Positions 16,359 to 63,078 of a DNA stretch of 64,000 nucleotides are shown here, one piece after another. How positions within the stretch are numbered: position 1 is the stretch's first letter; each line of letters starts with the position of its first letter. The stretch is from Rickettsiales bacterium (GTDB lineage Bacteria; Pseudomonadota; Alphaproteobacteria; Rs-D84): positions 5,257 to 69,256 of the forward strand of contig JAIRUP010000003.1 of assembly GCA_031254335.1 (NCBI GenBank), given 5' to 3'. The position numbers were made by a program, and so were the translations under genes. Under the pieces are notes generated by a model that was given only the letters and a program-made list of their open reading frames with translations, had not been told where the DNA came from and did not search any database.

Positions 16359-16402
16359 ATTACCTAGATGGTCGGGTCGGAGCCCGAACATGACAAGATG
16401 TT

Positions 16403-20331: not shown

Positions 20332-20336
20332 AAGAC

Positions 20337-21006: not shown

Positions 21007-21008
21007 AT

Positions 21009-21338
21009 TTATTTCACTTGTTTCAAGGATACTTTGAATGTTGCTGGTTTGCCCGCAAGCTCCGGATAATAATTCGCGGGAAAAGTTATATTTATATTCT
21101 TCGTATCCCCGGGGCGCATGCCCACGATTTGCGATTCGAACCCCGGCACAAACGCGTTGCTGCCAAGCATAAGCGGATACGATTCGCCCCGCCCGCCCGC
21201 GAATTCCTGGCCGTTCATCGAGCCCACGAAGTCGATAATAACCGTGTCGCCCATTTGCGCAGGGCGAGCTTCGCTGTCGCTGCACGCGAACAGCGCCGCG
21301 GTCATACCGATTATTCCGAATGCTTTCAATTTCTTCAT
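21009..21338 (-). CDS. FKBP-type peptidyl-prolyl cis-trans isomerase lipoprotein
   Basis: Lipobox LFACS; FKBP domain GDTVIIDFVGSMNGQEFAGG...LGSNAFVPGFESQIVGMRPGD. Confidence 0.75.
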   Translation of the reverse strand: MKKLKAFGIIGMTAALFACSDSEARPAQMGDTVIIDFVGSMNGQEFAGGRGESYPLMLGSNAFVPGFESQIVGMRPGDTKNINITFPANYYPELAGKPATFKVSLKQVK

Positions 21339-21987: not shown

Positions 21988-22042
21988 GACCCCCCCCCAC
22001 CTGCGGCTTTGCCGCAGACTCCCCCGCAAGGGGGGAGTTGGG
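21988..22042. repeat. C-family palindromic repeat between rpmA and rplU
   Basis: tgacccccccccacctgcggctttgccgcagactcccccgcaaggggggagttgg. Confidence 0.8.
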
Positions 22043-25929: not shown

Positions 25930-27147
25930 ATGACGATAGGGGACATATTCAAGGAATCGTGGATTTCCATCGCGGGAAACAAGACCCGAACATTCCTTAC
26001 CGTTTTGGGAATCATAATCGGCGTCATGGCCGTCGTCATCATGGTCGCCGTCGGCGAGACCGTGCAGAAACAAATCGACGACCAATTCTCGGCCCTTGGG
26101 TCCAACACCATCGTAATCCGCCCCGCCCAAGTTCAGACCGCCGGAGTGCGCCAGGGAAACCGCATGACCCTTACCATTCAAGACGCCGAAGTTTTGCGCC
26201 GGCTGCCCGAGATAACCGCCCTTACGCCGCAGCAATCTTCCAGCGCGCAGATTGTTTTCGGAAACAAAAACTGGCCAGCCCAGATGATGGGCGTTTGGCC
26301 AGACTATCTTGCCGTCAACGGCGCGGAGGTCGAGCAGGGCGCGTTCTTCGACATGTCCGCCGTCCGCAATTCATCCGCCGTCGCCGTTTTGGGCCCCAAG
26401 ATTGTGCGCGAGCTTGATATGGGCGATTACCCCATCGGACAAGTCATTCGAATTTCCAATGTTCCCTTCGTCGTAATCGGCGTCTTGAAATCCCGCGGCG
26501 AAAGTTTCGGCGGGAACACCGACGAGTCCGTCATCATTCCTTTCAGCACGCTTAAAAAACGCTTCGCGGGCCGGTATTTTCAAGATTCCGTTCAGGCCAT
26601 TGCTTTGAAAACAATTTCAGGCTCGGACAACGATGTCGTTATCGAGCAGATTACCGCGATTCTCCGCGACCGCCACAAGCTGAAAGACGACCAGCAGGAC
26701 GATTTCCAGATTATGAACATGAAGCAGGTCATGGACACCCTTAACACCGTAACAGGCTTTATGAAGATGCTGTTAATCGCCATCGCGTCGGTGTCCCTTT
26801 TGGTCGGCTCCATCGGAATCATGAACATGATGCTGGTGTCCGTCATGGAGCGCACGCGCGAAATCGGCATCCGAAAAGCCGTCGGAGCAAAAGAACGGCA
26901 CATCATGATTCAATTCCTTGCAGAGTCCATCATGATTTCCAGCATGGGAAGTTTTATAGGTTTGCTGTCGGGGGTTGTAATCACGCAGGGCGTCGGGCGG
27001 TTCGTTCTTGGGTTCCCCGTTCCCGTGAGTTTATGGTCGGTTATCATTTCCGTCGTCGTAGCTTTGGTAGTCGGTATTGCGTCCGGCGTGTTTCCAGCGA
27101 TTAAGGCGACGAAGCTGAATCCGATTGATTCGTTAAGGTATGAATAA
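25930..27147 (+). CDS. ABC transporter permease, FtsX/MacB family
   Basis: N-terminal TM, a large periplasmic domain, and a C-terminal FtsX-like 3-TM bundle (ERTREIGIRKAVGA). Confidence 0.85.
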   Translation: MTIGDIFKESWISIAGNKTRTFLTVLGIIIGVMAVVIMVAVGETVQKQIDDQFSALGSNTIVIRPAQVQTAGVRQGNRMTLTIQDAEVLRRLPEITALTPQQSSSAQIVFGNKNWPAQMMGVWPDYLAVNGAEVEQGAFFDMSAVRNSSAVAVLGPKIVRELDMGDYPIGQVIRISNVPFVVIGVLKSRGESFGGNTDESVIIPFSTLKKRFAGRYFQDSVQAIALKTISGSDNDVVIEQITAILRDRHKLKDDQQDDFQIMNMKQVMDTLNTVTGFMKMLLIAIASVSLLVGSIGIMNMMLVSVMERTREIGIRKAVGAKERHIMIQFLAESIMISSMGSFIGLLSGVVITQGVGRFVLGFPVPVSLWSVIISVVVALVVGIASGVFPAIKATKLNPIDSLRYE

Positions 27148-27335
27148 AAAATAAAGGCCGGTTTTTCGTTTTCGCGCCTAATACCCGAATGACACTTCGA
27201 AAAATCGCCCGTCGCGGACTTAGGTGTCCAGACGCCGGGCAATTTTTCTTGGTCCTCGGGCATTATTCATCGAAAACGCGACCGGCCTAATATTTTTTAT
27301 AGCTTATTAATGTTCTTGTTTAGAATATTGGGAAA

Positions 27336-29837: not shown

Positions 29838-30074
29838 AAGTCGCCCCGAGGGGGGCGGTTTTTTTATTCCCACCCCGGCCCGCCTTCGTCTACGACTACG
29901 GCGCGGCGACTCCTCCCAAGAGGGGAATTTAATAAGGATTTATACAATGGACCCCGGCCTTCGCCGGGGTGACTGGTTGGGAAAGGCTCTGCGTAGGGGC
30001 GATGGGTTTTCGACCCCCCACCAAAAACGGCGAAGCCGTTTTTGGCTCCCCCGCATGGGGGGGAGCTAACCTTA

Positions 30075-30927: not shown

Positions 30928-32415
30928 TTAGCGCAGGGATTTTTTGATGTAATACTGCTGCGCTATGCCGAAGATGTTCGACACCGTCCAATACAACACA
31001 AGGCCAGCCGGCAGGCCCGCGAACAGGACCACAAACACCACCGGCATCCACTTCATGAAGCCCATGCCCGGCGTCGCCGCATTTGCGTTCGACGACATTT
31101 TCATTTGAAGCCACATTGTCGCGCCCATCAGAATCGGCAGAATTCCGATTGCGGGCAAGAACGAGGGCGGCGCGAAAGGCAACAGGCCGAACAGGTTCAA
31201 TATGTTCGTCGGGTCCGCCGCCGCCAAATCCCTTATCCACAGGAAACTTGAATCCCGCATTTCGACCGCGATAATCAGCGCGCGGTATAGCGCGAAGAAT
31301 ATCGGGATTTGCAGCAACATCGGCAGGCACCCCGACATCGGGCTGACCTTCGTCGTCTGATACAACCTCATCATTTCCTGTTGAAGGCGCGCGCGGTCGT
31401 CCTTATACAGCTTTTGGATTCTTTGCATTTCCGGCTGCATTTTCTGCATCGCCGCCATCGACTTATACGATTTCTTCGTAAGCGGTATCATCAGAATACG
31501 GATGATTAGGGTAAGGATAATGATTGCGAGGCCATAGTTCCCGACCAAATCGTGCAACGCCGTAAGCGACCAAAGGAAAGGCCGCGACAGGAACGAAAAC
31601 CATCCGTAGTCGATTGTTTGCGCGACGCCCGGCATCGCCGGATTCGCCGCGTTCAGGATTTTCTGCGATTTCGGCCCGGCATATATATTAAATGTAAAGT
31701 CGCTTGCCGCGTCCGCCGATATATCCGCCTGGAACCGGTCGCCGCCGATGTTCTTCATGCGGAGCGTGCGCGGACCCGGGACGCCCGAATCAATTTGCAC
31801 AAGCGTTTGCCAATACTGGTCCTCGAACCCGACGAACGAATTCGCGCCGCCGCCCCACACCGCGCTTTTATCCGATATATTTCCCCAGCTTTCGCGCTTC
31901 GTGTTTCCATCGATATTGGCGAGGCCGCCCGCGGATGTCATCAGCATCATGCTCGATTTTTTTCCGCCGTCCCTTGCGATTCTCGCGTAGGGCGCGGCGT
32001 TCCCTTTCGACTTAATCCGCACGCTTATCACATAGTCTTCCGATATTGAAATCGTCTTCGTGAATTCGCCGCCGCCGACCAGTCCGAACTCTATGAATTC
32101 GCCCGGGTTCGCCAGAAGCTCCACCGGCTTCGCGCCGTCATGATATTTCAGCAATCGGACATTCGATATGCGGTCGCCCGTTTGCGTGAGTTCGATGTTT
32201 TCGGATTTTATTTCGATTGGAGCGGACGAGGTCCCGCGGTCAAGCCGCGGGATGACATCATTATTTATTTGCGCGGGCTGCGGTTTGCTTGACGGCATGA
32301 AGAACGATATGATTAGCCAATTCAGGCCAAGGAATATTCCAAGCAGCAGCGCCAGTTCCAAGAATTTGGGTTTTGACCCCCCCGCAAGGGGGGAGTTATT
32401 TAATATTTTTACCAT
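30928..32415 (-). CDS. yidC: Membrane protein insertase YidC
   Basis: 495 aa; an N-terminal TM, a large periplasmic domain, and the conserved C-terminal 5-TM core (...LPMLLQIPIFFALY...). A truncated C-family repeat is encoded in-frame at residues about 6-14 (NSPLAGGSK). Confidence 0.9.
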   Translation of the reverse strand: MVKILNNSPLAGGSKPKFLELALLLGIFLGLNWLIISFFMPSSKPQPAQINNDVIPRLDRGTSSAPIEIKSENIELTQTGDRISNVRLLKYHDGAKPVELLANPGEFIEFGLVGGGEFTKTISISEDYVISVRIKSKGNAAPYARIARDGGKKSSMMLMTSAGGLANIDGNTKRESWGNISDKSAVWGGGANSFVGFEDQYWQTLVQIDSGVPGPRTLRMKNIGGDRFQADISADAASDFTFNIYAGPKSQKILNAANPAMPGVAQTIDYGWFSFLSRPFLWSLTALHDLVGNYGLAIIILTLIIRILMIPLTKKSYKSMAAMQKMQPEMQRIQKLYKDDRARLQQEMMRLYQTTKVSPMSGCLPMLLQIPIFFALYRALIIAVEMRDSSFLWIRDLAAADPTNILNLFGLLPFAPPSFLPAIGILPILMGATMWLQMKMSSNANAATPGMGFMKWMPVVFVVLFAGLPAGLVLYWTVSNIFGIAQQYYIKKSLR

Positions 32416-34518: not shown

Positions 34519-34741
34519 GCTTGCATTATAATTACGGAATGACAAAAAATCCAAGCGCAATTTTTCGTTTTCGGCCTAAATCTCCGAATGACACGGCGAA
34601 AAACCGACACGCCGCGGCGGCGCATAAGGCCAGCGTCGGTCGGTTTTTCTTGGTCCTCGGCGATTTATTCTCGAAAACGCGATTGCGCCAAGGATTTTTT
34701 GGGATTATTTAGTGATTGACAAAATGTTTTATTAAGGTATT

Positions 34742-36492: not shown

Positions 36493-37425
36493 ATGACGAG
36501 TCGTATGAAAAAGATATTCAAATATTTTCCGGTTTGGGTTGTTTGCGTTATCGCCCTTGGCGCGGCATTCGTATATTTCAGGCCCGCGCAGGAAATCGAA
36601 ATCGCCGCGGCTTTGGCTCCGGCGGCGACAAAGGATATTAATTACGACCTGGATGGTCGGGTCCTAGCCCACCATGACAATAATGGCGAGGTTCAGGTTG
36701 CGCGGCACGGGTTTGCCCTTGAATTCGAGGGCATAAAAGCACGCGCGCGCATCGGTCGCGTGAGAATCAATTTCATGCGCGACGGCGACAGATACGAAAC
36801 TTCCATGAGCGTTCGCGCCGCGGGAATTTTCAAGAGCGTTCTTGACGAGAAGCTATCCTTGAAATCCGCAGGCCGGATTTCAGACGGACGGATGGAGGCC
36901 GATTATTTCCTTAACAGCTCCGTCAAAGACAACGGGAAGGGGGAAGAAAAAGTCCACGACTTTACGGACGGTCCGGCATACTCTTACAACGGAACCAAGG
37001 AAGAAGTCGACGGCAAGATATACGAGCAGGCCGTCGACCCCCTTGTTATTTTGATTCTTGTCGGCAATGCCATCGGCGACGCGGGAAACTGCAATTTTTC
37101 AAGCAACTCGCTTTTGGACAAGTTGGGATTCACGGTCGAATCTTCCGACAAGGGAGACCGAAAGGACTCGGGCATAAAGTCCAAGGGCAAGCCAATCGTA
37201 GAGCGGCGGTGCGACATTACCGTCCGAAACCGCGCCGGAAAAAAGCAGAAGGCTTTCCCTTTCGACCACGAGTTCGCAAAAAAGGGCAAGAAGGCGCGGG
37301 CCGCCAAGATTCGGGTTTATTATTCCGACATCGACGGCGGAGGGATTGTTCCCGTTTATATAAAAATCATCGAGACCCCGATTGGGGATTTCGACATAAG
37401 GCTGGTGAAGATTTCGAGGTTTTGA
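36493..37425 (+). CDS. Hypothetical exported protein
   Basis: N-terminal hydrophobic segment VWVVCVIALGAAFV; Lys-rich C-terminus. The annotated ATG lies within a B-family repeat (gacgccgaccaacgccggcatgacgag), so the true start may be MKKIF at 36505. Confidence 0.5.
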   Translation: MTSRMKKIFKYFPVWVVCVIALGAAFVYFRPAQEIEIAAALAPAATKDINYDLDGRVLAHHDNNGEVQVARHGFALEFEGIKARARIGRVRINFMRDGDRYETSMSVRAAGIFKSVLDEKLSLKSAGRISDGRMEADYFLNSSVKDNGKGEEKVHDFTDGPAYSYNGTKEEVDGKIYEQAVDPLVILILVGNAIGDAGNCNFSSNSLLDKLGFTVESSDKGDRKDSGIKSKGKPIVERRCDITVRNRAGKKQKAFPFDHEFAKKGKKARAAKIRVYYSDIDGGGIVPVYIKIIETPIGDFDIRLVKISRF

Positions 37426-37600
37426 GAAAGACAAAAAATAAAATGGGCGTTTTTCGTTTTCGCGTCTAATCGCCGAATGACGCTTCGAAAAACCGACGCG
37501 CCGCGGCGGCGTTACAGGCCAACGGCGGTCGGTTTTTCTTGGTCCTCGGACGATTATCCATCGAAAACGCGACGCCAATAATTATTTTTTGAGCTTATTT

Positions 37601-38966: not shown

Positions 38967-40025
38967 CTATTTGTTGTTCATTTCCCTACGAATCTCTCTC
39001 CAATTCGCGTGGTTAACCTGGTGCTCCTCGTATGTTTCGGCGAATATATGCCCCCCGCTTCCATCCGCCACGAAGTAAAAATAATCATGCTGTTCCGGGT
39101 TCAGAGCAGCCATTATAGCATGGATTCCGGGATTCGCAATCGGCGTCGGCGGAAGCCCTTTGTATTTATAAGTATTATACAGGCTGTCGGTTTCAAGGTG
39201 CTTCCTTGTAATCCCGCGGCCCTGCATGTGGCCCCAGCCGCCCGTTATCGCATAGACGACAGTCGGGTCCGCCTGCAACTTCATGCCTTTTTTCAGGCGG
39301 TTCACATACACCCCCGCCACGCGCGGCATTTCCGACAAGACCCTTGTTTCTTTTTGTATTATGGCCGCCAAGGATAGCAATTCCGTCCAGTTTTGTATCG
39401 GTTCCGGCAGGCTGTTCTCATATTTCGCGCGCGTCGCCGACATTTTATCCGCCATTGCGTTAAGGACAAGATTCCTATCCGCGCCCTTGGCGAATCCATA
39501 GGTTTCCGGGAACAATTCCCCGTCATTATAAAGCGTTCTTATTTGGCCGGTCAGCTCCGGGTGGTTGCCGACGATTTCATAGATTTGCTTCACCGTCAGC
39601 CCTTCGGGAATCGTAATCATCGTGAGGGCTATGCGGCCCTTGGCGAAATTACGCGCGGTCGTCCAGACGCTTTGGCCCGGCTTCAAGTCGTAAAGGCCCG
39701 ACTGTATGCGGCCGCCCCAAAGCTGGACCGATACCTTGAACAATATCCCGCTATTGATTAGATTTTGTTCGCGCAATTCCGCGGCCACTTTCGATATTGA
39801 CGCGCCCGCCGGGACATTGAACGGCGTTTTTTCCGCAATCGGCGAGCTGAAAAATGTCCAGCGCGCGAGGGTAAAGCCGGTTGCGAGGATGATAACGATT
39901 AGGAATTGGGCGAGGATGTTGCGTTTCGACCCCCCACCGAAACGCCAAAGGCGTTTCGACTCCCCCGCAATGGGGGAGTTGATTTTTTTTATTATTTTTT
40001 TCTTAATTTTCTTTTTCTTAGGCAT
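38967..40025 (-). CDS. mltG: Endolytic murein transglycosylase MltG (YceG family)
   Basis: YceG-like domain (...LPPTPIANPG...); the N-terminus carries an in-frame C-family repeat (KKINSPIAGESKRLWRFGGGSKR) encoded by 39928..39980. Confidence 0.85.
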   Translation of the reverse strand: MPKKKKIKKKIIKKINSPIAGESKRLWRFGGGSKRNILAQFLIVIILATGFTLARWTFFSSPIAEKTPFNVPAGASISKVAAELREQNLINSGILFKVSVQLWGGRIQSGLYDLKPGQSVWTTARNFAKGRIALTMITIPEGLTVKQIYEIVGNHPELTGQIRTLYNDGELFPETYGFAKGADRNLVLNAMADKMSATRAKYENSLPEPIQNWTELLSLAAIIQKETRVLSEMPRVAGVYVNRLKKGMKLQADPTVVYAITGGWGHMQGRGITRKHLETDSLYNTYKYKGLPPTPIANPGIHAIMAALNPEQHDYFYFVADGSGGHIFAETYEEHQVNHANWREIRREMNNK

Positions 40026-41367: not shown

Positions 41368-41423
41368 AACCCCCCACCGAAATTTTCATTGAAAATTTCG
41401 ACTCCCCCGCAAGGGGGGAGTTA
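41368..41423. repeat. C-family palindromic repeat between acpP and fabF
   Basis: aaccccccaccgaaattttcattgaaaatttcgactcccccgcaaggggggagtt. Confidence 0.8.
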
Positions 41424-41868: not shown

Positions 41869-43887
41869 TTGAATATGGGGGGGGAATATGGTAAAATTAG
41901 GGAAAGAGAGAATTTTAGGAGAGGGCCTATTTTTAGGAAGTTCAGCAATTTATGCGGATTCATACAATGGACCCCGGCCTTCGCCGGGGTGACGCTAGTT
42001 GTTATGTTGTCCAGTGCAATGGCGGCGCCGATTGCGGGGCCGGGTCCGGCAATCGCGGGCGGCGGCGGAAACCTTACTTCCCTTAAAGGTTCCGGCATAG
42101 TGAACGCCAACGCCTACAACAATCAAGCCATGCCTCAACGCACCGCCCATGTCGAGATGGCCGAGGCTGCCGCGGGCGCGGAAATAAACTATCGCAACTG
42201 CGAATCCATGCTGAAACGCTGCGTCGTTCCCAAGTGTTCCGCAGGCTGCACAGACAATGCCATGACGACCAGCATTATCAAGGGATGTTTATCCGCCATG
42301 TCACCCGGTTGCGAGAAATTCGACGAATTGCCGTCCGCGCTTGCCGCTGAAATAGTTTCCATGGGCGTAGCCGCCCAACAAAAAGCCGCGTCCGAGGCCG
42401 CGAGCGCGGCCGCCGCGCAGGCGCAAGCCCAGGCAAGCGCGGACACCGCCGCCATGCAGCAACAGATGGCGCAGATGCAACAGCAGATGGCCGAACAGCA
42501 GGCCCAGGCCGCCGCGGCGCAACAGAAAATGATGGAAGACATGATGGCCGCGCAACAGGCGCAGGCTCAGCAGGCCGCCGCCATGCCCGCCGCCGCGCCG
42601 GTTATGGCCGAAGTTTTGGCGCGCGACCAGGCGTCCGGCCAAATCATGTCCGAAATCGACCGCATGAACGGCGCGCTGGCTTCCCTTAAAAAAATCATGG
42701 AGACGACATTCGATTACGCCGGCTGCGATTACCGCGGCGAGAACTGCCAGCAGGTGCGCCGAGTCGCCGCCTTCCGCGAGAAGGCCAACAAGTTCTTCCA
42801 GCCCTTCGACGAAGTTATCGACCGCATTTACGATGTAATCAGCATGGGCCAGGCACTTGGCGCGGATGTCAACAATGTTTATATGCTGTTGGAGAGTTCT
42901 TGCGAAAGATGGGGGCTTTACACCAATACAAACTTCAAGCCGAATACCACAAATGTTCCGAAACAAGGCGACCTTATAAGGATTCTGAATTCCGGCGAAG
43001 AAGTTTTGAATGAATTTTCGCAGGGGCAGCAGAGGTCCGACGGCCTTATGGTCGCCTGCGCTTCGAAGAGCGCGACAAGCAATGTGGGAATGATTGCCAG
43101 GCGCCGGGCGAACGCAACCGCAATCGATACCGAGCCTTTGAGGCAGGCGCTGGCGGCCATGGATAGAAGAGAGATGAACGCAAGCAAAAGCATGGTATGG
43201 GTGCATCCGTGTTGCGGAAGCAGTACCGTAAAGACCGTTTGCAAAGAGAAGTGGGGCGACACGGACAAAAACAACCCGGGCGACGGGTCTTGCAAAGAAG
43301 TAAATCCCGAATTCACCATTTGCCCGGTGCATGCATTGAACGGACCCATGTGTTCCTCTGGGGTGCAAACGCTTTCGCTGACGGCGCCGGACGCCGAGCT
43401 TCTTGCGCGCCGCGCGAGCAATATAACCCGCGAGATGTTCCAGCAGTTCAACAGGCTGGACATCATCGCAAAGCAAATCAGAACCATTGTTCAGCAGGCC
43501 GTTCTGAACCACCAGAACCAGCAGGCGGCAGAAGCCGCCAACCCGGGCGCGAATGCCATAGATTCGGCGCTTTGTATGAGTGCGGGTGGAACTTTGGAAG
43601 TTCTTAAATGCCTTGGCAACGAGGTCGCGCAGCTTATTTCAGAAGTTCAATCAGCGAGCACCGTGTCGAATTTCAGAAAACGCTGCGATAACCTGTATGC
43701 CAGGGTTAAGAATGAAACCAGCCTTTATGCGAAGAATCAAAATAAAAATATTAAACAATGCGGAACTGATAAAGCTAGTATGCAAGAAAGCTTATATTCG
43801 TTTAGAAATGCCTTAACCGAGGCTAGTAATAGCACTGACCTTAAAAAAGATGCCACACAGTTCGTGATTCAAGCCAGTCCGCAGTAG
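41869..43887 (+). CDS. Large secreted Cys-rich protein, divergent paralog 3
   Basis: C-x6-C-x4-C module (CESMLKRCVVPKCSAGC) like paralogs 1 and 2; a long Gln/Ala-rich low-complexity tract (AQAQASADTAAMQQQMAQMQQQMAEQQAQAAAAQQ); a Cys-rich remainder. The N-terminus includes an in-frame B-family repeat (41955..41990) encoding a hydrophobic segment; the true start is uncertain. Confidence 0.65.
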   Translation: MNMGGEYGKIRERENFRRGPIFRKFSNLCGFIQWTPAFAGVTLVVMLSSAMAAPIAGPGPAIAGGGGNLTSLKGSGIVNANAYNNQAMPQRTAHVEMAEAAAGAEINYRNCESMLKRCVVPKCSAGCTDNAMTTSIIKGCLSAMSPGCEKFDELPSALAAEIVSMGVAAQQKAASEAASAAAAQAQAQASADTAAMQQQMAQMQQQMAEQQAQAAAAQQKMMEDMMAAQQAQAQQAAAMPAAAPVMAEVLARDQASGQIMSEIDRMNGALASLKKIMETTFDYAGCDYRGENCQQVRRVAAFREKANKFFQPFDEVIDRIYDVISMGQALGADVNNVYMLLESSCERWGLYTNTNFKPNTTNVPKQGDLIRILNSGEEVLNEFSQGQQRSDGLMVACASKSATSNVGMIARRRANATAIDTEPLRQALAAMDRREMNASKSMVWVHPCCGSSTVKTVCKEKWGDTDKNNPGDGSCKEVNPEFTICPVHALNGPMCSSGVQTLSLTAPDAELLARRASNITREMFQQFNRLDIIAKQIRTIVQQAVLNHQNQQAAEAANPGANAIDSALCMSAGGTLEVLKCLGNEVAQLISEVQSASTVSNFRKRCDNLYARVKNETSLYAKNQNKNIKQCGTDKASMQESLYSFRNALTEASNSTDLKKDATQFVIQASPQ

Positions 43888-45855: not shown

Positions 45856-47019
45856 TTAGAGGATGGCGCGGAGGATGTTTTCCGTCGCGTGATTCGGGGT
45901 TTGCGCAGACGCCGCCATTTTTTCTAGGCGAGCGGGATTCGAGAAAAGGTCGGATAAAATCGAAGAGAGATATTTCGGCGTGAAGTTTTTCTGTTCGATT
46001 GTGATTCCGCCGCCAAGTTTTTCGAACGCCCTTGCATTGGCCAACTGGTCCGGGTTTATGTTCAACGGCACCAATATCGCCGGTCTTCCCACCGTCATCA
46101 ATTCCGCCACCGTGCCGGCTCCGCTTCGCCCTATCACAAGGGACGCTTCCGAAATTTCCGTCGCCATATCCTTGAAGAACGGCGCGAGGCGGTGCTTTAT
46201 ATTAAGGTTGGTATAGAACTTACTCAATGATTGGATACTATTATTATCGACTTGTTGGACTATGGACAGGTTGTTGCGGATGGATGGCGGAAGCATTTCG
46301 ATTGCCGCCGGCACCACTTCGCGCAAAATGTTCGCGCCCAAGGAACCGCCGGTTATAAATATTGCGTGTCCGGCGTTGTAGGGAGCAGGGCGGAAGTCGC
46401 TTCGCACCGGCAATCCCGTCAATTCTATGCGCGCGTTTTTCGGAAGGCCCGTCGTCCCCGGAAACGAAATCAAAATCTTATCCGCGAATTTCGCAGAAAG
46501 CGCGTTCGCCCTTCCTGCCGCCGCGTTTTGCTCGTGCAGAAAAACAGGTATGCGCAGCAATTTCCCCGCAAGCACCGCGGGCACCGACGAATAGCCGCCG
46601 AACGCGACTATGCGCGACGGACGCGACACCAAAAAGCGCGCGCTCAACGCCGCCGCGCTTAACGCGATTTTCGATAGAGCGACGATTTTTCCGATTGGGC
46701 TGCGGTTGCCGACCCCGCTTGCCCAGACGCGCGCCACCTTTGCGTTCGCGGGTTTGTTCCGCGCGACCATATCATAGCCGCGGGCGTCGGTGGAGATTGT
46801 GATTTTGTTTTGACCCCCCACCGGCGGCTGCGCCGCCGCCGACAACGAATCCACCGAATTGAAAATTCGGGGATTCTGCTCGGACGGGAAATCATGCCGC
46901 CCGGCATGATTTCTTTGTCCGTCCTCACCCGCAAGGGGGGAGTTAACTATAGATTGGGCGACGGCGAGGGCCGGAAATATATGCCCGCCGGTGCCGCCGG
47001 TCGCTATCCATATTTTCAT
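45856..47019 (-). CDS. murG: UDP-N-acetylglucosamine--N-acetylmuramyl-(pentapeptide) pyrophosphoryl-undecaprenol N-acetylglucosamine transferase, carrying an in-frame repeat insertion
   Basis: MKIWIATGGTGGHIFPALAVAQ, then an insert of about 45 aa (NSPLAGEDGQRNHAGRHDFPSEQNPRIFNSVDSLSAAAQPPVGGQ) encoded by the composite repeat 46805..46948, then canonical MurG. Confidence 0.88.
   Translation of the reverse strand: MKIWIATGGTGGHIFPALAVAQSIVNSPLAGEDGQRNHAGRHDFPSEQNPRIFNSVDSLSAAAQPPVGGQNKITISTDARGYDMVARNKPANAKVARVWASGVGNRSPIGKIVALSKIALSAAALSARFLVSRPSRIVAFGGYSSVPAVLAGKLLRIPVFLHEQNAAAGRANALSAKFADKILISFPGTTGLPKNARIELTGLPVRSDFRPAPYNAGHAIFITGGSLGANILREVVPAAIEMLPPSIRNNLSIVQQVDNNSIQSLSKFYTNLNIKHRLAPFFKDMATEISEASLVIGRSGAGTVAELMTVGRPAILVPLNINPDQLANARAFEKLGGGITIEQKNFTPKYLSSILSDLFSNPARLEKMAASAQTPNHATENILRAIL
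46805..46948. repeat. Composite repeat of about 140 bp (C-family termini enclosing nested hairpins)
   Basis: gaccccccaccg...gaatccaccgaattgaaaattcggggattc...ggacgggaaatcatgccgcccggcatgatttctttgtccgtcc...cccgcaaggggggagtt; near-identical copies at 53330..53510 (intergenic) and 59902..60045 (inside proS). Confidence 0.9.
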
Positions 47020-48188
47020 GAGAACTCCTTACGGGTTGTGTCGGCTTTGCCGACGGATTTATTAAATGACGGCGGGGAAGGGAACTTATAGCTTCTTAAC
47101 AGGCCGAGCAGGATTCCGAACACCGCGCACATCGATATAAACGCGCTGCCTCCGTAAGATATAAACGGCAGTATCGTTCCCTTGGCCGGCGTTATATTCA
47201 ATGTCGTTCCTATATTCAATATCAAGTGCATCGTCATCAGCGCGACCGTGCCGCCGCACACCAGCTTCGTCGTCATGTCCGTCATATCCCGCATCAGCTT
47301 CAATATTCTCGCCAGCAGCCAAAGATACAGGCCAAGCAACGCCACGCCCGCCAGGATTCCCCGGTCTTCCACGAACGCCGCGAACACAAAGTCCGTATGG
47401 CTGTCCGGCAATGTAGATTTCACGAAGCTGCTATTGCTTTGGCCGATAAACCCGCCGTTCCTTATCGCGTCCAACGCCTGGTTCACCTGGTAGCCGTCGC
47501 CCTCGCCGAGCAATCTTTTCCGCACATGCGGCATAGTCGCAAACGCTATGCCCAGCAATCCAATCGCGCCGCTTGCCAATCCCGTCAGCGGCTTCCATCC
47601 GTATCCCGCGAAGAACAGCATCGCCCAGAATGTTCCGAAGTATATCAGCGTCATGCCGAAGTCCTTCCTGATAAATATCGTGGCCAGCAGGGGGAGGGTG
47701 ATGGCGAGGTAGACCCCCCACCGAAACCGCTTTGCGGTTTCGACTTCCCCGCATGGAGGGAGTTGGGACAAGAAGACGGCGGTTAATAATATGAAGAACG
47801 GCTTCAACAATTCCGACGGGTGGATTTGCTGGCCCAGAACCGTCAAGAATCGGCACGAGCCCTTGACGCATGTTGGGGAAATCAGCGTCGCCAGCACGAG
47901 CGCGGCGGTAATGGTTCCGAGGAGCGCAGACAGATATATGATTTGTTTCCTTGGCAGAAACGAAAAGAAAAACAGGGCGAAAAGACCGATTCCCATCGGG
48001 GCGAGGGCTTTTATAAAAAAGTATAGCGGCTGCTGGCCTATGCGGGCCGCGGACACTCCGCCCGCCGCAATCAGCATATAGACCCCGACCAGTATCAAGC
48101 CCAAGACCGAATACAATATCGCGCGGTCGGTTTGGAAGAACCATTTGGTCAAGAAGCTTGGGTCGCGGCGTTGGAAGCGCATTTGCAT
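47016..48188 (-). CDS. ftsW: Peptidoglycan glycosyltransferase FtsW (SEDS family)
   Basis: Ten-TM SEDS topology; conserved C-terminal region. An in-frame C-family insert (47712..47765) encodes LPPCGEVETAKRFRWGV. Confidence 0.88.
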   Translation of the reverse strand: MQMRFQRRDPSFLTKWFFQTDRAILYSVLGLILVGVYMLIAAGGVSAARIGQQPLYFFIKALAPMGIGLFALFFFSFLPRKQIIYLSALLGTITAALVLATLISPTCVKGSCRFLTVLGQQIHPSELLKPFFILLTAVFLSQLPPCGEVETAKRFRWGVYLAITLPLLATIFIRKDFGMTLIYFGTFWAMLFFAGYGWKPLTGLASGAIGLLGIAFATMPHVRKRLLGEGDGYQVNQALDAIRNGGFIGQSNSSFVKSTLPDSHTDFVFAAFVEDRGILAGVALLGLYLWLLARILKLMRDMTDMTTKLVCGGTVALMTMHLILNIGTTLNITPAKGTILPFISYGGSAFISMCAVFGILLGLLRSYKFPSPPSFNKSVGKADTTRKEFS

Positions 48189-53329: not shown

Positions 53330-53510
53330 CACACAATGGACCCCGAACAACGAATCCACCAAATCGAAGATTTGGGGATTCTGCTTGGCCGGGAAATCAT
53401 GACGCCAGTCATGATTTCTTTGTCCGTCCTCACCTTCGCTGGGGTGACGGGTGGGGTTATTCTCTGCCTGGGTGACGGCGGGGGGGGGAAGGCTTTGCAC
53501 AAAGAGGGGG
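53330..53510. repeat. Intergenic copy of the ~140-bp composite repeat, with an added B-like tail
   Basis: ccccgaacaacgaatccaccaaatcgaagatttggggattctgcttggccgggaaatcatgacgccagtcatgatttctttgtccgtcctcaccttcgctggggtgacgg. Confidence 0.8.
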
Positions 53511-54247: not shown

Positions 54248-55108
54248 TTATTCCTCGACCTTCAAGCCCATCTGTTTCCAAGTCGACATCATGTCGCCTT
54301 TGTTTATAATCGTGTCCGCCGTGAGTTTTAACACGGGAATGATTCGTTTTCCAGTGTTTTTGGATTCAAATTCCTCGGCTTTCTTTTTCAGAAGCCAGGC
54401 CGGCGAGATTTTTTCCGCGCCTTCGGCGAACCATTTCGGCGGCATGCCGCCGGATTCCTTTTCGTCCGCAATCCATGCGCCCGCGTCCTTGTGCTCGGCC
54501 GTTATGCGGATTCTGAATTCCGATTCGGTTATTTCAAGGTTGTCTGTCGATGAGGTCCCGTGGTCAAGTCGTGGGACGACAGAGGGGGCGGCGTTTTCCT
54601 GTTTTCCGGGCGTCGGGTCGAAAGAGGACATGGAGAATAAATCGGTTGAGTTGTCTTCGGCAACAGTTTTTGACTGGATGCCAGCCTTCGCTGGCATGAC
54701 GGCGGGGGTGGGCGTTTGCTCTGCTTCGAGGCGTTTGATTTTTATATAGGCGTTTTTCAGCTCGTCCGGCATGCTTTTTCCTATCTTGATTTCGGTATGG
54801 GTTTTTACCAAGTCTTCATGCTCGACCGGCTTGGTTTCCGCGGGCTTGGCGGGTTTCTTGAAGCCGCCCTGCTTATAAAACACGAACGACAGGACGCCGC
54901 CGATTGGCAGGCTTGCGGCCATCGAGACCAGCAGGGCCGTGCCGCGCAGGCCGTGGAATCCGTATTTCGACACCAATGCCCAATGGCGCGCGGAAAATAT
55001 ATCGAATCGGAAGGCGGCATAAAAGAAAACCACGCAAAACGCCAGCCAAACGGACCACCAGGCGGCTTGGACGGCGACTGCTTTCAATATGTTGTTTTCG
55101 GGTTTCAT
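54248..55108 (-). CDS. Hypothetical membrane protein carrying two in-frame repeat insertions
   Basis: N-terminal TMs (AAWWSVWLAFCVVFFYAAF; ALLVSMAASLPIGGVLSFVFY). A B-family repeat (54672..54705) encodes TPAVMPAKAGIQ; an A-family repeat (54552..54581) encodes VVPRLDHGTSST. Confidence 0.55.
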   Translation of the reverse strand: MKPENNILKAVAVQAAWWSVWLAFCVVFFYAAFRFDIFSARHWALVSKYGFHGLRGTALLVSMAASLPIGGVLSFVFYKQGGFKKPAKPAETKPVEHEDLVKTHTEIKIGKSMPDELKNAYIKIKRLEAEQTPTPAVMPAKAGIQSKTVAEDNSTDLFSMSSFDPTPGKQENAAPSVVPRLDHGTSSTDNLEITESEFRIRITAEHKDAGAWIADEKESGGMPPKWFAEGAEKISPAWLLKKKAEEFESKNTGKRIIPVLKLTADTIINKGDMMSTWKQMGLKVEE

Positions 55109-55816: not shown

Positions 55817-56137
55817 ATGACACAAAACCTAGTTCAGATAATGACCGCTTTGGACCAAGTGCTGGCGAGCGTCGCTTGGCTTGGAGCCGATGGGAAAATC
55901 GACAGTTTGAAGGGGCGTCTGCAAAACGGCGGCACCGACAGCCTTGACAAGCTGCCGCGCGACGCGCTGACCGGCGCTTATATCGCCCTTCAAATCAAGT
56001 GCGACAATTTCGAGCCGGCCGTCGAGAGCCTTAACGACGAAGAGCTTGCTTTGCGCGTCAAAGCCATGGTGTTTTCCGAGGCCAAGAAAATCCTGGATGC
56101 GCGCGTCGCCGCGAAGAAGGAAGTCAAGGCGGCTTGA
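55817..56137 (+). CDS. Hypothetical small protein (106 aa), divergent from mraZ
   Basis: The start is taken at MTQNLVQ (the ORF track opens at 55757); no family recognised. Confidence 0.4.
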   Translation: MTQNLVQIMTALDQVLASVAWLGADGKIDSLKGRLQNGGTDSLDKLPRDALTGAYIALQIKCDNFEPAVESLNDEELALRVKAMVFSEAKKILDARVAAKKEVKAA

Positions 56138-56430
56138 TGTCAAAAAATCCAACCTCGCTTTTTCGTTTTCGGATTAAATCACCGAAAACGAAAAAGCGAG
56201 CTCGATAAGATTTTTTAAGTTTATAAAGTTTCCCGAAGGGGAAGGAAGGGAGAACGCCGCTGATTCAAAACAGCGGCGTTTTTTTGACCCCCCCCACCGT
56301 CCGCCTGCGCTTCGCGCTGGCGCGACGACTCCCCCGCAAGGGGGGAGTTAATTTATAGTGGGATTTTAGTTGACAAAAACAGAAGGGAAGGGTATAATCG
56401 GGGCATCCAATCCCAGCAAAAGGCCCAAAG

Positions 56431-57616: not shown

Positions 57617-58711
57617 ATGGTTTATAAACTTATCGAGAAAAACATACTATCGGGTTCGTCCTTCGACGACTATCTCATCGTTCCGGGGTATTCCGCCGTC
57701 GTGCCTTCCGATGTTTCCACAAGCATAACGCTGCTCAATAAAAAATACGGGACGCGCCTTCAACTTCGTCTTCCGATTTTCTCGGCCGCCATGGACACCG
57801 TCAGCGAAGCGCGCATGGGAATCGCTATGTCCAAGTCCGGCGGAATCGCCGTAATCCACAAAAACATGACGCCCGAACAGCAGGCCGCGGAAGTCGAAAA
57901 AGTCAAAATAAAACGCTGCAAGGTCGCCGCCGCCACAGGCGTCGGGAAAAAGGGCGTCAAACGCGCGGGCCTTCTTATCGACGCCGGCGTCGACGCGATT
58001 GTCATCGATTCCTCGCACGGGCATTCCAAAAATGTCGGCGACACCGTCGCCGCGCTTCGCAAGAAGTTCCCGCACCTTAACATCATCGCGGGAAATGTCG
58101 CCACCGCGGAAGGCGCGCTTTTCCTTGAACAGGCCGGTGCCAGCATTGTCAAAGTCGGAATCGGCCCGGGTTCGATTTGCACGACCCGCCAGGTAACCGG
58201 ATGCGGCATTCCGCAGCTTGACGCCGTCTACGATGTCGCGCGCGCCATGGACGGCCGGGTGCCGGTAATCGCCGACGGCGGAATCAGATATTCCGGCGAC
58301 ATAACCAAGGCCCTTTCCGCGGGCGCGTCCGCCGTAATGCTTGGCTCCATGCTGGCCGGAACCGAAGAGACCCCAGGCGAGGTCATGAAAAACATGGAAG
58401 GCAAAAAATACAAGCAATACCGCGGCATGGGCTCTATCCCCGCCATGATGAAGGGCAGCGCCGACAGATACGGCCAGGGAAATATCAAAAACAGCAAGAA
58501 ACTTGTCGCAGAGGGAATCGAGGCTTTCGTTCCATATAAGGAAGAAGTTGCGAAACTTCTGTTCCAGCTTAGCGGGGGGCTGCGCGCAGGGATGGGGCTT
58601 GTCGGAGCGAAGTGCATTATGGAGCTTTGGAGCAAGGCGAAGTTCCGCCAGATTACATTCGCCAGCCGGTTGGAGAGCCTTACGCACAGCGTGCAGGAAA
58701 AGATACATTAG
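57617..58711 (+). CDS. guaB: IMP dehydrogenase-family enzyme lacking the CBS/Bateman subdomain (364 aa)
   Basis: [13 protein letters not shown]; IDSSHGHS; [11 protein letters not shown] catalytic-Cys loop; [11 protein letters not shown]; GSMLAGTEE; RGMGS. These align throughout to IMPDH, but there is no insert of about 120 aa between the IHKNM and SSHGHS regions. Confidence 0.8.
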
Positions 58712-58940
58712 ACGAAAAATCCTGAGCTGGAATTTTCGAATTCGGCTTAAAACCCCCACTACGCTTCGGGAAGCCGACACGCCGCGGACGCCTCAGTCCA
58801 GACGGCGGTCGGGTTTTCTTGGTATTGAACGATTTATCCTCGAAAACGCGAGTGGACTAATATTTTTTGAGTTATTGAGCGGCGGTTCCCGCACGCTTTG
58901 TTGCCGGGATTCCCCGGTCAAGCCGGGGAATGACAATTTA
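58712..58940. repeat. Composite intergenic repeat (D-family terminator element, a gagcggcgg...ccgcacgc linker, then an A-family element)
   Basis: The same module order as 8840..9075 and 20612..20980. Confidence 0.8.
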
Positions 58941-59316: not shown

Positions 59317-60720
59317 TTATTTTATGGTGCGGAGGATGGCGGGCAGGGTGTCCTTGACGGGAAGGGTTGCGGGCAGCAAGTCCGATTTGATTTCAAACTG
59401 TCCGTTCGCGATATTCTTATCCGAGGAAATTATTCTGACGGGCGCGCCAAGCAAATCCGCGTTCGCAAATTTGCTTCCCGCGCGGTCGTCCGTCGTATCG
59501 ATGATGGCGGGAATGTTGTTTTTAAGAAGTTCTTCGTAAAGTTTTTCCGCTTCCTTACGGGATGACTCGGCGGAGCCGAGGGTTATGATATGGACTTTAT
59601 AGGGGGCGACTTCCAAATTGAATTTTGCGAGAGAGTCGCTGCCGGACTGTTCCAACAACGCGCCCAAACATCTGCTGACGCCAATCCCATAACATCCCAT
59701 GACCGGGTTTTTCCGTTCGCCCTTTTCGTCCGTATATTCCAGCTTCATCGGTTTGGAATATTTGTCGCCCAGCCTGAAAATATTTCCGACTTCGACCGCG
59801 CGGTGCGCGCGGAGTTCGCCGCCGCATTTCGGGCAGACCAGAATATCGTCGGCTTCCTTGTCGCCGTTGGTCAGGATTTCCTTGTTGGAGCGGTAGCCGC
59901 ACGCGCCTTGACCCCCCACCGACGGCGAAGCCGTCGACGACAACGAATCCACCGAATTGAAAATTCGGGGATTCTGCTCGGACGGGAAATCATGCCGCCC
60001 GGCATGATTTCTATTTCCGTCCTCACCCGCATGGAGGGAGTTGTTATTTTGGCATACATATATAATGTCTTCGCCGGTGTCGTTCATCCATTGGAACTCG
60101 TGCGAGAACCGGCTGCTCATATCGCCGCCGGGAGCCAGAACATCAATCACATTTTCAAGGCCCAATCTTTTATATATGCGCTTGTAGGCTTCGAGGATTT
60201 TTTCGTAGGTCGCGTCAAGGTCCGCGTCCGTCGCATGGAACGAATACGCGTCCTTCATCAGGAATTCCCGGCCCCGCATGATTCCGGCGCGGGCGCGCGC
60301 TTCGTCCCTATATTTGTCTTGGATTTGGTAGAGCGTGAACGGAAGCTGCTTGTAGCTTTGCAGCGCGCCGCGAGCATAGTCCACCACGATTTCCTCGTGC
60401 GTGGGATTCAGGGCGAGCTCTTGGCCGCTTCGGTTCTTGAATTTCAGAAGCACATCCATATTCTCGCGCTTCGTTTCCCGCCAGAGCGCGACCGGCGACA
60501 GCACCGGCATGAAGATTTCCTGCGCGCCGGCTTTATTCATTTCGTCGCGGATTATGCTCGATATGTTTTGGATTGCGGCCCAGCCGATGGACGAATAGGT
60601 ATATATTCCCGCCGCCGTTTGATGGACGAAGCCGCCGCGCAGGCTTAACTTATGCCCGTTCGTCGTCGCTTCCGCCGGAAGTTCCTTTTCGCGTTTCAGG
60701 AATAGGTTTTCTATGCGCAT
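59317..60720 (-). CDS. proS: Prolyl-tRNA synthetase (short form without an editing domain) carrying an in-frame repeat insertion
   Basis: Class II aaRS motifs; a C-terminal anticodon-binding region. An insertion of about 45 aa (LHAGEDGNRNHAGRHDFPSEQNPRIFNSVDSLSSTASPSVGGQG) is encoded by the composite repeat 59902..60045. Confidence 0.9.
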   Translation of the reverse strand: MRIENLFLKREKELPAEATTNGHKLSLRGGFVHQTAAGIYTYSSIGWAAIQNISSIIRDEMNKAGAQEIFMPVLSPVALWRETKRENMDVLLKFKNRSGQELALNPTHEEIVVDYARGALQSYKQLPFTLYQIQDKYRDEARARAGIMRGREFLMKDAYSFHATDADLDATYEKILEAYKRIYKRLGLENVIDVLAPGGDMSSRFSHEFQWMNDTGEDIIYVCQNNNSLHAGEDGNRNHAGRHDFPSEQNPRIFNSVDSLSSTASPSVGGQGACGYRSNKEILTNGDKEADDILVCPKCGGELRAHRAVEVGNIFRLGDKYSKPMKLEYTDEKGERKNPVMGCYGIGVSRCLGALLEQSGSDSLAKFNLEVAPYKVHIITLGSAESSRKEAEKLYEELLKNNIPAIIDTTDDRAGSKFANADLLGAPVRIISSDKNIANGQFEIKSDLLPATLPVKDTLPAILRTIK

Positions 60721-60732: not shown

Positions 60733-63078
60733 TTAGAACTGGGTTTCGAACGACAGCAGGAACCGGCGCTCGCGGTCGTAGTCCTTGCGCAGGAACGGAT
60801 AGCCCCAGCTGAAATTCATCGGTCCCATCGGCGTGTTCCAATAGACTCCGAATCCATAGGACGCGCGCAAATCCTGGTCAATCATATTCGGCACGCCCAA
60901 TGTTTTCCAATCCTTTTCCGGCGGCTTGCCCAGCACGCCGTAATCCAGGAACACAAATCCCTTCACCTGGTATTCGTCCGGGATGAATATCGGGAAATTC
61001 ATTTGCGTCGTGCCGTTAACCTTCCACAGGCCTCCGAACGCATATCGGTTATTGAACCAAAGCCGCGAGCCGACGCCGGAATTGTCGAATCCGCGCAATG
61101 TTTCGCCGCCCAAGAAATACCTGTATGGGCGCAGAAGGTAGTCGTCTTGGAGCGGGTATATATATCCGCCGTCCAGGCTTGATTTAAGCTGCCATCTTTC
61201 GTCCAGGAAATTCACCAATCCCACAATCGACGAATCTCCGCGCAGGAATGTTTCCGTCCCCCCGAATCCCGTATAGGCCAGCGACAAGGAATACACGACC
61301 CCGGTATGGGTGTTTTGCTGGAAGTTCGTGTCCAAATTGGAATACCGAACCGATGTTCCCAAGGTATAAAGCGCCGTATCCGTCGCGCGCTGCATTTCAA
61401 CATCCGTTATATGGTCCCACATTCCCGACAAGCGGAGCTGCTGCGTCCAATTATCCGTAAGCAGCCAGCCCAGCCTTCCCGTGATTCCCGCCGTGTCCCT
61501 GTTATATCCGTAAGACCCAAGGTTCTTATAGTCGTATTTCACATAGTTCACATCGAAGCCGCCGCTTAACGCGCGCTTCCAAAGATACGGCTCTGTAAAA
61601 CTGAACGCGACCATGTCCTGATACTGCGCGACCTGGCCCTTGATGGACACGATTTGTCCGCGGCCCATGAAGTTCCGTTCGGTAATTCCCGCGTCCACCA
61701 TAAACCCGTTTATGTTCGACCAGCCAACGCCGCCCGACAATTCCCCCGTCGGCTGTTCCTGGACATTGACCGCAAGGTTCATAAGGTTCGTGTCCTCTAT
61801 CCGCGTTGGCGTCATTTCCACCGATTTAAAGAATCCCGTGCGCATGAGGCGTTGGCGCGACTGCTCTATCGTCTGCAACGAGAACGGGTCCTTGGGCTTC
61901 ATCATAAGGTGCCTGTTTATAACGAAATCGAATGTCCGGGAATTGCCCGCGACGATAATATCGTTCAGATACATTCTCGGGGCTTTCCGAATCCTGAATG
62001 TCAAATCGATTGTAAGGCTTTCGTCGTTTTTCTTCGGCTCTATATCGATATTGATAAACGCATAGCCTTTGTCCGCCACGATTTGGCGCAGCTTCGACAT
62101 CGTCATTTCGACTTTTTCCAGATTGTATATGTCGCCCGTCTCGAACTGGACGCCGCGCCGCAAGTCCCGCATTTCAACATCGGGGAACGGATTATCTATA
62201 TCAATCGCCCCGAATTTGAAGCGCGCCCCCTCGACTATCTTGAACTTCACCGAATAATCCCGCCTGTCGGCGGAAAGCCGCCCATACACGCGGCCGACGC
62301 TTACATCCGCGAAGCCGTTCTTCAAGTAAAACTGGCGGATAAGCTGCATGTCGTAATCGATTCTGTCCGCGTCATAGGAATCGAAGCTGGACATGAATTT
62401 CCACCAGGCGTATTCCTGCGACATGACCACGCCGCGGAGCGTTCTGTTCGAAAATTTCTCGTTCCCCTCGAAGTCGATATTGCGGATGCGCGTCCTGTGG
62501 CCCTCGGTTATCTTATACACCACATCCACGCGGTGGTCTTCCGTTATAATCTTCTGAGGCTCTACCTTTGTGTCGAAGAATCCATGCCTTTGATAGAGCG
62601 TGAGTATTCGCTGCGTGTCCGCGCCCACCGTCGCAATCGAAAACGGATTTCTTTCCGCGAGCCTTATTTCCTTTTTCAAATCCTCGGTCGAAATCTCGTC
62701 GTTTCCCTCTGTCGTGATTCGCCCGACAACCGGCGTTTCCGCCACGCGGATTTGGAGCGCGCCGCCCCGGATGTCCGCCGACACTTCCTCGAAGTATCCG
62801 CTTCGCTGCAAGGACTTGGTGATTTGGTTGAGCCGCGCTTTCGATATGTCCTCGCCCGGCTTCGCGCCGACCATCAGGATTACCGACTCGGAGTCTATGC
62901 GCTTGTTGCCGGCGACCGTGATTTTGGAGATTGTTTCGGCGAAGGAAGAAGTGGTTAAAAATAAGGATATGCCGAATAGTCCCCCCACCAAAAACCGCAA
63001 AGCGGTTTTTGACTCCCCCGCAAGGGGGGAGTTAATCTTATGAAATAATGCGAGAGAGAATTTCATTTTACAGACCAA
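60733..63078 (-). CDS. bamA: Outer membrane protein assembly factor BamA
   Basis: Five POTRA-like repeats plus a C-terminal Omp85 beta-barrel ending ...LSFETQF. An N-terminal in-frame C-family insert (62989..63033) encodes HKINSPLAGESKTALRFLVGG. Confidence 0.92.
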   Translation of the reverse strand: MVCKMKFSLALFHKINSPLAGESKTALRFLVGGLFGISLFLTTSSFAETISKITVAGNKRIDSESVILMVGAKPGEDISKARLNQITKSLQRSGYFEEVSADIRGGALQIRVAETPVVGRITTEGNDEISTEDLKKEIRLAERNPFSIATVGADTQRILTLYQRHGFFDTKVEPQKIITEDHRVDVVYKITEGHRTRIRNIDFEGNEKFSNRTLRGVVMSQEYAWWKFMSSFDSYDADRIDYDMQLIRQFYLKNGFADVSVGRVYGRLSADRRDYSVKFKIVEGARFKFGAIDIDNPFPDVEMRDLRRGVQFETGDIYNLEKVEMTMSKLRQIVADKGYAFINIDIEPKKNDESLTIDLTFRIRKAPRMYLNDIIVAGNSRTFDFVINRHLMMKPKDPFSLQTIEQSRQRLMRTGFFKSVEMTPTRIEDTNLMNLAVNVQEQPTGELSGGVGWSNINGFMVDAGITERNFMGRGQIVSIKGQVAQYQDMVAFSFTEPYLWKRALSGGFDVNYVKYDYKNLGSYGYNRDTAGITGRLGWLLTDNWTQQLRLSGMWDHITDVEMQRATDTALYTLGTSVRYSNLDTNFQQNTHTGVVYSLSLAYTGFGGTETFLRGDSSIVGLVNFLDERWQLKSSLDGGYIYPLQDDYLLRPYRYFLGGETLRGFDNSGVGSRLWFNNRYAFGGLWKVNGTTQMNFPIFIPDEYQVKGFVFLDYGVLGKPPEKDWKTLGVPNMIDQDLRASYGFGVYWNTPMGPMNFSWGYPFLRKDYDRERRFLLSFETQF

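Follow-up and report, generated by a model that had tools for sequence, protein, structure and literature searches.

Rickettsia palindromic elements (RPEs) are repeats of 100-150 bp that occur in both the intergenic and the coding regions of Rickettsia, where they lie in frame within many housekeeping genes, including pheT; related protein-coding palindromic repeats are present in Wolbachia (PMC1779305, PMC10969869). Repetitive extragenic palindromes (REPs) are likewise found inside genes in several phyla, as single units, dimers, or clusters encoding 20-82 residues, and tRNA synthetase genes are among their hosts; RPE-4 and RPE-6 of Rickettsia are themselves REPs carrying a CGTC tag (PMC3733652). 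MITEs (miniature transposable elements with inverted repeats), such as ERIC, QMITE1 of Coxiella, the MITEs of Anabaena, and the Correia elements, can also fuse open frames with those of their hosts (PMC10969869). Here we describe a nested palindromic element, called the composite below, within the proS and murG genes of a 64-kb stretch of DNA (64,000 nt, ~54% G+C; hereafter the window) from contig JAIRUP010000003.1 of GenBank assembly GCA_031254335.1. In our view the composite is likely to be selfish DNA of the REP/RPE type, a hairpin-forming repeat of nested build that is translated as a disordered loop where essential proteins have a permissive site.

The two host open reading frames (ORFs) encode MDR0319332.1 (LBH81_01175; ORF 59317-60720) and MDR0319320.1 (ORF 45856-47019), both at 100% identity, and both belong to one 84,968-bp contig of a metagenome-assembled genome (MAG) labelled 'Rickettsiales bacterium' at NCBI. 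The genes, the two composites with their parts, and a third, partial copy lie in the window as follows.

59317-60720, minus strand: proS ORF, 467 aa, Pfam tRNA-synt_2b and HGTP_anticodon
59908-60042, plus strand (the gene reads minus): composite copy in proS; the orientation of the element is set as GACCCCCCACC ... GGGGGGAGTT on the plus strand
59921-59935: HP0, the variable perfect hairpin of the outer element, in the proS copy, GACGGC-GAA-GCCGTC
59939-60025: inner element of the proS copy, 97.6% identical to that of the murG copy
45856-47019, minus strand: murG ORF, 387 aa, Glyco_transf_28 and Glyco_tran_28_C
46810-46944, plus strand: composite copy in murG, equivalent to MurG residues 25-69
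46812-46822, plus strand: 5' terminus of the outer element, murG copy, GACCCCCCACC
46823-46837, plus strand: HP0 in the murG copy, GGCGGC-TGC-GCCGCC
46841-46927, plus strand: inner element of ~87 nt, murG copy, (G)ACAACGAATCC...GTCCGTCCTCA
46847-46876 and 46882-46924: HP1 and HP2, the hairpins of the inner element, murG copy
46928-46944, plus strand: 3' terminus of the outer element, murG copy, CCCGCAAGGGGGGAGTT; the inner element cuts short the 5' arm of its stem
53347-53434, plus strand: third copy, inner element only, intergenic between convergent ORFs, 88 nt, 89-90% identity

A repeat search of the window grouped 46810-46944 and 59908-60042 as a 135-nt family at 93% identity (10 of 135 positions differ), with one weak third member. 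The 28-nt core of the long hairpin had three matches in the window where none was expected (100 shuffles), and the 39-nt region of the first hairpin had two exact matches, against none expected in shuffled sequence. The composite is a two-level nest: an outer element, of a family here called the C-family, has its last stem broken by an inner element of two hairpins, which is placed between GAC and CCCGCAAGG within the 5' arm of that stem. A 143-nt RNA of the composite folds at -76.4 kcal/mol (z = -6.0 relative to shuffles; z = -5.3 for the DNA fold), with the C6/G6 terminal runs pairing as a closing stem around three hairpins. The original prediction, made from the sequence of the window, of a palindromic element with nested hairpins inside proS and murG is thus confirmed in both respects. 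At 135 nt, palindromic, and with at least four copies of the inner element in the MAG, the repeat has the size and structure of an RPE. An identity as a tRNA-like or other known RNA, which the cloverleaf-like fold might recall, was rejected, as there was no Rfam family and no match from a tRNA predictor; an Rfam search of the composite returned no family at threshold and no intron family even at E values up to 10. An intein or self-splicing intron was rejected as well: Pfam shows host-protein domains only in both proteins, and Rfam shows no intron family.

The third copy had been predicted as an intergenic instance of the same element at 53330-53510. The inner module is indeed shared, but the C-family termini are absent and the range was too wide. 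At 53347-53434 the inner element breaks a small hairpin repeat of another type, D17 (ACAATGGACCCCG / CCTTCGCTGGGGTGAC, ~53334-53458), in the 5' arm of its hairpin, and all three inner copies that can be read as DNA sit inside another hairpin element (C-family twice, D17 once). Because it is also found alone within another small hairpin repeat, the inner element is, judging from these placements, a separate module that inserts into hairpins. It was found neither in ~95 kb of related contigs nor in the metagenome contig collection searched, and the core of the long hairpin matched only unrelated palindromes, mostly of Desulfosarcina, in the genome contig collection; the source genome evidently lies outside that collection.

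When the 45-residue peptide encoded by the composite was searched with HMMER against 1.84 billion representative proteins, a single additional protein was found, LBH81_03630 (P0241), encoded on another contig of the same MAG. This secreted, Cys-rich protein of 1759 aa, whose copy of the element is known at the protein level only, contains two inserts within its low-complexity N-terminal region: the peptide of the composite, in the same frame and at 96% identity, at residues 117-161, and separately a simple C-family insert at ~197-222. The residues encoded by HP0 in its composite match those of the murG copy, while the simple C-family copies mostly have differing HP0 sequences; on this comparison, inner and outer element would have been copied together after the composite had arisen.

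The best solved relatives of the 59317-60720 ORF are prolyl-tRNA synthetases (ProRS); the protein of the window has a 4-Cys zinc ribbon and no INS editing domain. The relatives compared included LBG89 (of which L013 is one contig; L016 overlaps it in reverse), SRR27833618, and Ga0466718. Relative to the empty orthologous site, the net insert in proS spans ~59905-60051, or ProRS residues 224-272. The closest ProRS (P0002, from LBG89; 79% identity, 440 aa) has the simple C-family unit only, at the same codon and in the same orientation and frame, and the sister-MAG proS with this outer element was assembled independently from two samples. In the next closest (P0003; 69%, 416 aa) the site is empty, reading TGC/GCT TGC (the slash marks the site), and an insert there is likewise lacking from all 71 other homologues in the alignment. 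No target-site duplication is visible between filled and empty proS sites (the latter in SRR27833618). Across 73 ProRS sequences, four cysteines do not vary (C223, C274, C296, and C299); all are retained in the ProRS of the window, where the insert between C223 and C274 turns the first CxxC into C-x50-C. In long ProRS structures the equivalent region is residues 234-402, where INS itself lies (a domain of ~170 aa in other bacteria; PF04073 in homologues of 565-580 aa), and because of this coincidence the site is, as far as alignment can tell, naturally insertion-tolerant. An AlphaFold2 model of the protein had a mean predicted local distance difference test score (pLDDT) of 87.1; residues 230-271 fell below 50 and formed no secondary structure. 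Both this protein and its LBG89 orthologue, with the shorter insert, are deposited under the name 'hypothetical protein'; disturbed coverage by the family model, caused by the insert, is one possible reason for the label.

The insert in MurG falls within its N-terminal, Rossmann-like domain, where it occupies the alpha1-beta2 loop between the helix at residues 11-26 and the strand at 72-77, just past the GGTGGH loop. The close MurG relatives P0123 and P0124 have no insert, so that in both proteins the block is lineage-specific, as alignment to orthologues had been expected to reveal. The AlphaFold2 model (mean pLDDT 89.5) again gave scores below 50 and no secondary structure to the insert, here residues 31-65, and in both models the inserts are the only long segments below 50. 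The predicted folds are consistent with the earlier proposal of a tolerated surface loop, the inserts being low-confidence segments inside otherwise confident models. The same MurG loop contains a D17-type repeat in LBG89 and a diverged, C-family-like unit in Ga0466718; a different repeat is thus present in each of three MAGs (L016 3512-3740; L017 9950-10190). A loop of FtsW in Ga0466718 holds a repeat-derived insert of 51 aa (L017 8535-9773). On these alignments, the MurG alpha1-beta2 and FtsW loops are recurrent insertion hot spots.

Both genes read the composite in the same element frame, giving the near-identical 45-residue peptides NSLHAGEDGNRNHAGRHDFPSEQNPRIFNSVDSLSSTASPSVGGQ and NSPLAGEDGQRNHAGRHDFPSEQNPRIFNSVDSLSAAAQPPVGGQ. 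Both ORFs are intact, in agreement with the original prediction that about 45 residues are added in one frame without breaking either gene. Three of the six frames of the composite are open; two of them are strongly basic, and the third, which is hydrophilic, is the frame used by all three genic copies. The simple C-family unit is open in all six frames, and ftsW uses a different one. The ratio of nonsynonymous to synonymous substitution rates (dN/dS) between the window genes and their LBG89 orthologues was 0.107 for proS and 0.108 for murG, with dS >1. Since dN/dS is ~0.11, both genes have, by this measure, been under purifying selection, and in the case of proS with a C-family insert present in both lineages. 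The loci are not decaying, contrary to the pseudogene scenario considered along with the prediction: besides the low dN/dS of 0.11, residues invariant in each family have been kept, the four zinc cysteines of ProRS among them. The three proteins that share the peptide are a synthetase of the cytosol, a glycosyltransferase associated with the membrane, and a Cys-rich protein that is secreted, and orthologues lack it; because it is common to such unrelated proteins, a function of its own is unlikely.

The reconstructed order of events would be as follows: the inner element inserted into a C-family hairpin, and the resulting composite spread as a unit. This non-coding, selfish repeat would then have landed in proS and murG and been translated through, the encoded 45-49 residues forming a disordered, hydrophilic excursion without a function of its own. 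Genic copies would persist only where the added length was a multiple of three, the frame was free of stops, and the loop was structurally permissive. The spread itself would probably depend on an enzyme acting in trans.

The resemblance to RPEs (RPE-1 to RPE-10) is extensive. Both are palindromic repeats that are found between genes and in frame within unrelated housekeeping genes, with a conserved peptide for each family; both have an aminoacyl-tRNA synthetase among their hosts (PheT with RPE-7), have proliferated in particular lineages, have no transposase assigned to them, and reside in an alphaproteobacterial host labelled Rickettsiales. The comparison with RPEs made in the original prediction was therefore apt, in view of the shared size, in-frame genic copies, and synthetase host. 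However, the element studied here occupies a non-Rickettsia host of ~54% G+C, combines two independent repeat families, one nested in the other, and has all of its copies co-oriented on one strand (RPEs being considered on this point through PMC3733652); the likeness is one of behaviour, with no demonstrated relationship of sequence. A blastn search of PLSDB plasmids and phages gave no match, a result that does not decide on a relationship to RPEs.

With REPs, bacterial interspersed mosaic elements, and REP doublets forming hairpins (REPINs), the composite shares short hairpins, stems that vary by compensatory change, and units that form mosaics. A further likeness is seen in the neighbouring small repeat families D3, D11, D13, and D17 of the window, whose tail has the form hairpin-ATGAC(G), or CGTCAT-hairpin when read from the opposite strand. 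In contrast, the ends of both the composite and the C-family are GACCCCCC and GGGGGGAGTT, with C6/G6 runs and neither a GTAG nor a CGTC tag; a CGTC-type tag was seen only in the neighbouring small families (17 hairpin+RTGAC units in the window). Whereas REPs mostly form inverted pairs, the units here are single and in one orientation, and no REP-associated tyrosine transposase (RAYT, an enzyme of the Y1 HUH type) was found among the 23 window ORFs scanned. MITEs are likewise small, non-autonomous repeats whose open frame can be fused to a host ORF, but at proS there is no target-site duplication, terminal complementarity is limited to the C6/G6 runs, and there is no known parent insertion sequence. 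The element thus behaves like RPE and REP repeats but is not an RPE proper; its sequence family and its G+C-rich lineage are new.

The outer element also occurs without the inner one. A simple C-family unit of ~53 nt consists of GACCCCCCACC, the variable perfect hairpin HP0, and then GACTCCCCCGCAAGGGGGGAGTT. Twelve copies of the 3' module are present in the window (0.05 expected for 11 of them), and nine of these are simple full copies.

47714-47764, plus strand: simple copy in ftsW, in another frame, read LPPCGEVETAKRFRWGV; the loop sequence is unrelated in relatives
41370-41422, plus strand: simple copy, intergenic, with the best sub-threshold match to whalefall-1 (minus strand, 28.4 bits)
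62981-63033, plus strand: simple copy where the bamA ORF has its 5' end, whalefall-1 26.9 bits
11801-11855, 12999-13049, 21990-22039, 30014-30067, 39930-39980, and 56288-56349: other simple copies
ending at 32397: truncated copy
41368-41423, 62979-63034, and 12997-13050, minus strand: sub-threshold matches to whalefall-1

The middle hairpin is fully or nearly fully paired in every simple copy, with a sequence that is mostly specific to the copy and termini that are conserved; double-sided (compensatory) changes were observed at seven of its nine pairs. A terminator role as the main function of the 3' hairpin and its T-rich tail was set aside, as copies occur within genes and also, in the wrong orientation, upstream of minus-strand genes.

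Read on the reverse strand, the C-family aligns over its full length to whalefall-1 (RF01762), an orphan candidate non-coding RNA from whale-fall metagenomes (PMC2864571), at 28.4, 26.9, and 19.1 bits. The layout of the 56-nt model is common to both: a 7-bp C/G hairpin, a spacer of 2-3 nt, a 9-bp variable hairpin, and a G-rich tail. The two differ in that the window copies, at 19-28 bits, fall under the gathering score of 37 bits, and in that whalefall-1 was described as a non-coding RNA, neither a mobile repeat nor DNA of coding regions. The exact C-family 3' module was found at seven metagenome loci. At one of them, a contig recovered twice (L022 3746-3801; L024 7940-7995), a whalefall-1 unit above threshold (41.2 bits) adjoins an exact C-family unit as an inverted pair within an ffh (SRP54) ORF, between the N and G domains; another metagenome copy of the C-family lies in the ORF of a PP-loop ATPase. 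Such placements suggest that whalefall-1 may be a mobile hairpin repeat rather than a non-coding RNA gene.

Several points weigh against a selfish repeat that is translated through. Given three open frames, the sharing of one frame by three copies would be expected in about 1 of 9 cases and is weakly significant, and translation of the insert is inferred from frame conservation only. The history of proS is ambiguous: at this site the outer termini of two lineages agree at ~90% of positions, at a synonymous divergence of ~1.2 between the lineages. This would require either that the copies evolved in concert or that a single site was hit independently, and the composite may either have replaced a resident C-family copy or have struck the same site. 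No transposase or RAYT-like gene was present among the 23 window ORFs scanned. Finally, the contig is known from one assembly, and a look-up of the window ProRS gave no second contig record.

Of the alternatives, co-option survives best, although we judge it unlikely: the RNA hairpins would regulate the stability or translation of the proS and murG mRNAs, or the peptide would itself be functional, for example as a tag for interaction or localisation. The compensatory changes that keep the middle hairpin of the outer element in place fit such a role, the Rfam curators accepted as a real RNA a motif that the outer element resembles (PMC2864571), and REPs have been proposed as RNA elements (PMC3733652). 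Yet ~95 kb of sequence from the closest relatives contains no inner element, and close relatives do without an insert in these genes; the peptide is predicted to be disordered and recurs in functionally unrelated cytosolic, membrane-associated, and secreted proteins. Palindromes that are perfect but specific to each copy are also typical of REP-like mobile repeats, and less so of one conserved RNA function.

We regard as very improbable that the element remains untranslated, being removed from the mRNA or bypassed by the ribosome to leave proteins of wild-type length. Ribosomal bypass has precedents in gene 60 of phage T4 and in the 'byp' elements of Magnusiomyces mitochondria, and the extreme structure of the composite RNA (-76 kcal/mol, z = -6), whose closing stem places both junctions side by side, would lend itself to either process. 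However, every genic copy examined is in frame and free of stops, even though three of the six frames of the composite contain them, and neither removal nor bypass would need this; the copies comprise three composites (proS, murG, LBH81_03630), simple units in ftsW and in the proS of LBG89, and other repeats in the MurG of two MAGs. Such copies fit a selection filter acting on random insertions and speak against RNA excision or ribosomal bypass. In addition, Rfam detected no intron or ribozyme family, and the intragenic RPEs of Rickettsia are treated as in-frame translational fusions that change the gene product (review PMC10969869).

Least credible of all is that the proS and murG copies are inactivated, or that the insertion arose artificially during assembly of a metagenome bin rich in repeats: a single assembly with no second contig on record, the name 'hypothetical protein' at NCBI, and a split zinc-binding CxxC would be in keeping with it, but the ORFs are full length and intact with family-invariant residues kept and a dN/dS of 0.11, both flanks of each insert are the same gene in the same frame, as a chimeric join would not give, the sister-MAG proS was assembled from two samples independently, and the 10 differences over 135 positions leave no room for a collapsed repeat.

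If the composite is a selfish repeat, its orientation bears on how it spread. All oriented repeat copies in the 64-kb window (C-family, D3, D11, D13, D17, the long D1/D2/D4 elements, and the inner element) are on the plus strand, though genes are on both strands. The hairpin+RTGAC units, which are rare or absent in more distant relatives, are distributed by strand as follows.

Window: 17 plus, 0 minus
L013: 1 plus, 7 minus
L016 (overlaps L013, reversed): 9 plus, 1 minus
L017: 0 plus, 14 minus

The GC skew at third codon positions, split by gene strand, has a replication-type component of ~-0.11 on the plus strand, and by this measure the CGTCAT-hairpin orientation is on the G-rich strand. The nascent leading strand is G-rich in most bacteria; on the assumption that this holds here, the G-rich strand would be the lagging-strand template. 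Transposases of the IS200/IS605 family insert into the lagging-strand template, and the RAYTs of the same family require single-stranded DNA (PMC6006769). By analogy, the one-strand polarity suggests that the repeats enter DNA while it is single-stranded at the replication fork, in the manner of IS200/IS605. More broadly, it is possible, though we offer this only tentatively and with some doubt, that all of the small palindromic repeats (the composite, the C-family relative of whalefall-1, and the CGTC-tagged REPs) are mobilised via single-stranded DNA at the fork, with whalefall-1 a mobile DNA hairpin and nesting into hairpins the targeting rule. Such mobilisation would account for the single-strand orientation over 64 kb and within each related contig.

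Other repeats are present in the window. Hairpin-ATGAC(G) repeats, resembling the CGTC-tagged REPs (PMC3733652), lie in ORFs or at their ends at 9842-9877 and 11759-11856 (uvrD ORF 9761-12001, in the C-terminal tail of UvrD), 32224-32267 (the N-terminal part of yidC), 54552-54709, 20940-20973, and 23879-23908. An AT-richer intergenic family of ~170 nt, in direct orientation and often immediately downstream of plus-strand genes, is present at 8842-9013, 20608-20777, 27133-27308, 34532-34709, 37421-37599, and 58710-58883, with partial copies at 2695-2782, 15023-15142, and 56137-56186. Large paralogous proteins with no Pfam match on record and many indels between genomes are encoded at 18064-20331, 27396-29786, and 41869-43887, and in L017 at 14740-17085 and 18616-21063. 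L017 also has phage-like genes beside its mraY-ftsW-murG cluster. In LBG89, an RVT_1 reverse-transcriptase gene (333 aa) adjoins a BrnT/BrnA toxin-antitoxin pair between yidC and murG (L013 19069-21092), a block that is missing at the equivalent position of the window.

For annotation, these results mean that a ProRS has been deposited as a 'hypothetical protein' and that an Rfam 'ncRNA' motif may be a mobile repeat. The strand polarity provides a testable handle on the spread of REP- and RPE-like repeats, which has been unresolved for the CGTC-type REPs and for RPEs. The MurG alpha1-beta2 loop, the FtsW loop, and the INS site of ProRS, struck repeatedly by different repeats, would naturally mark sites at which insertions are tolerated. 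The translation of selfish palindromic DNA within essential genes would reach beyond Rickettsia and Wolbachia, to a G+C-rich, uncultured, Rickettsiales-like lineage and to unrelated repeats.

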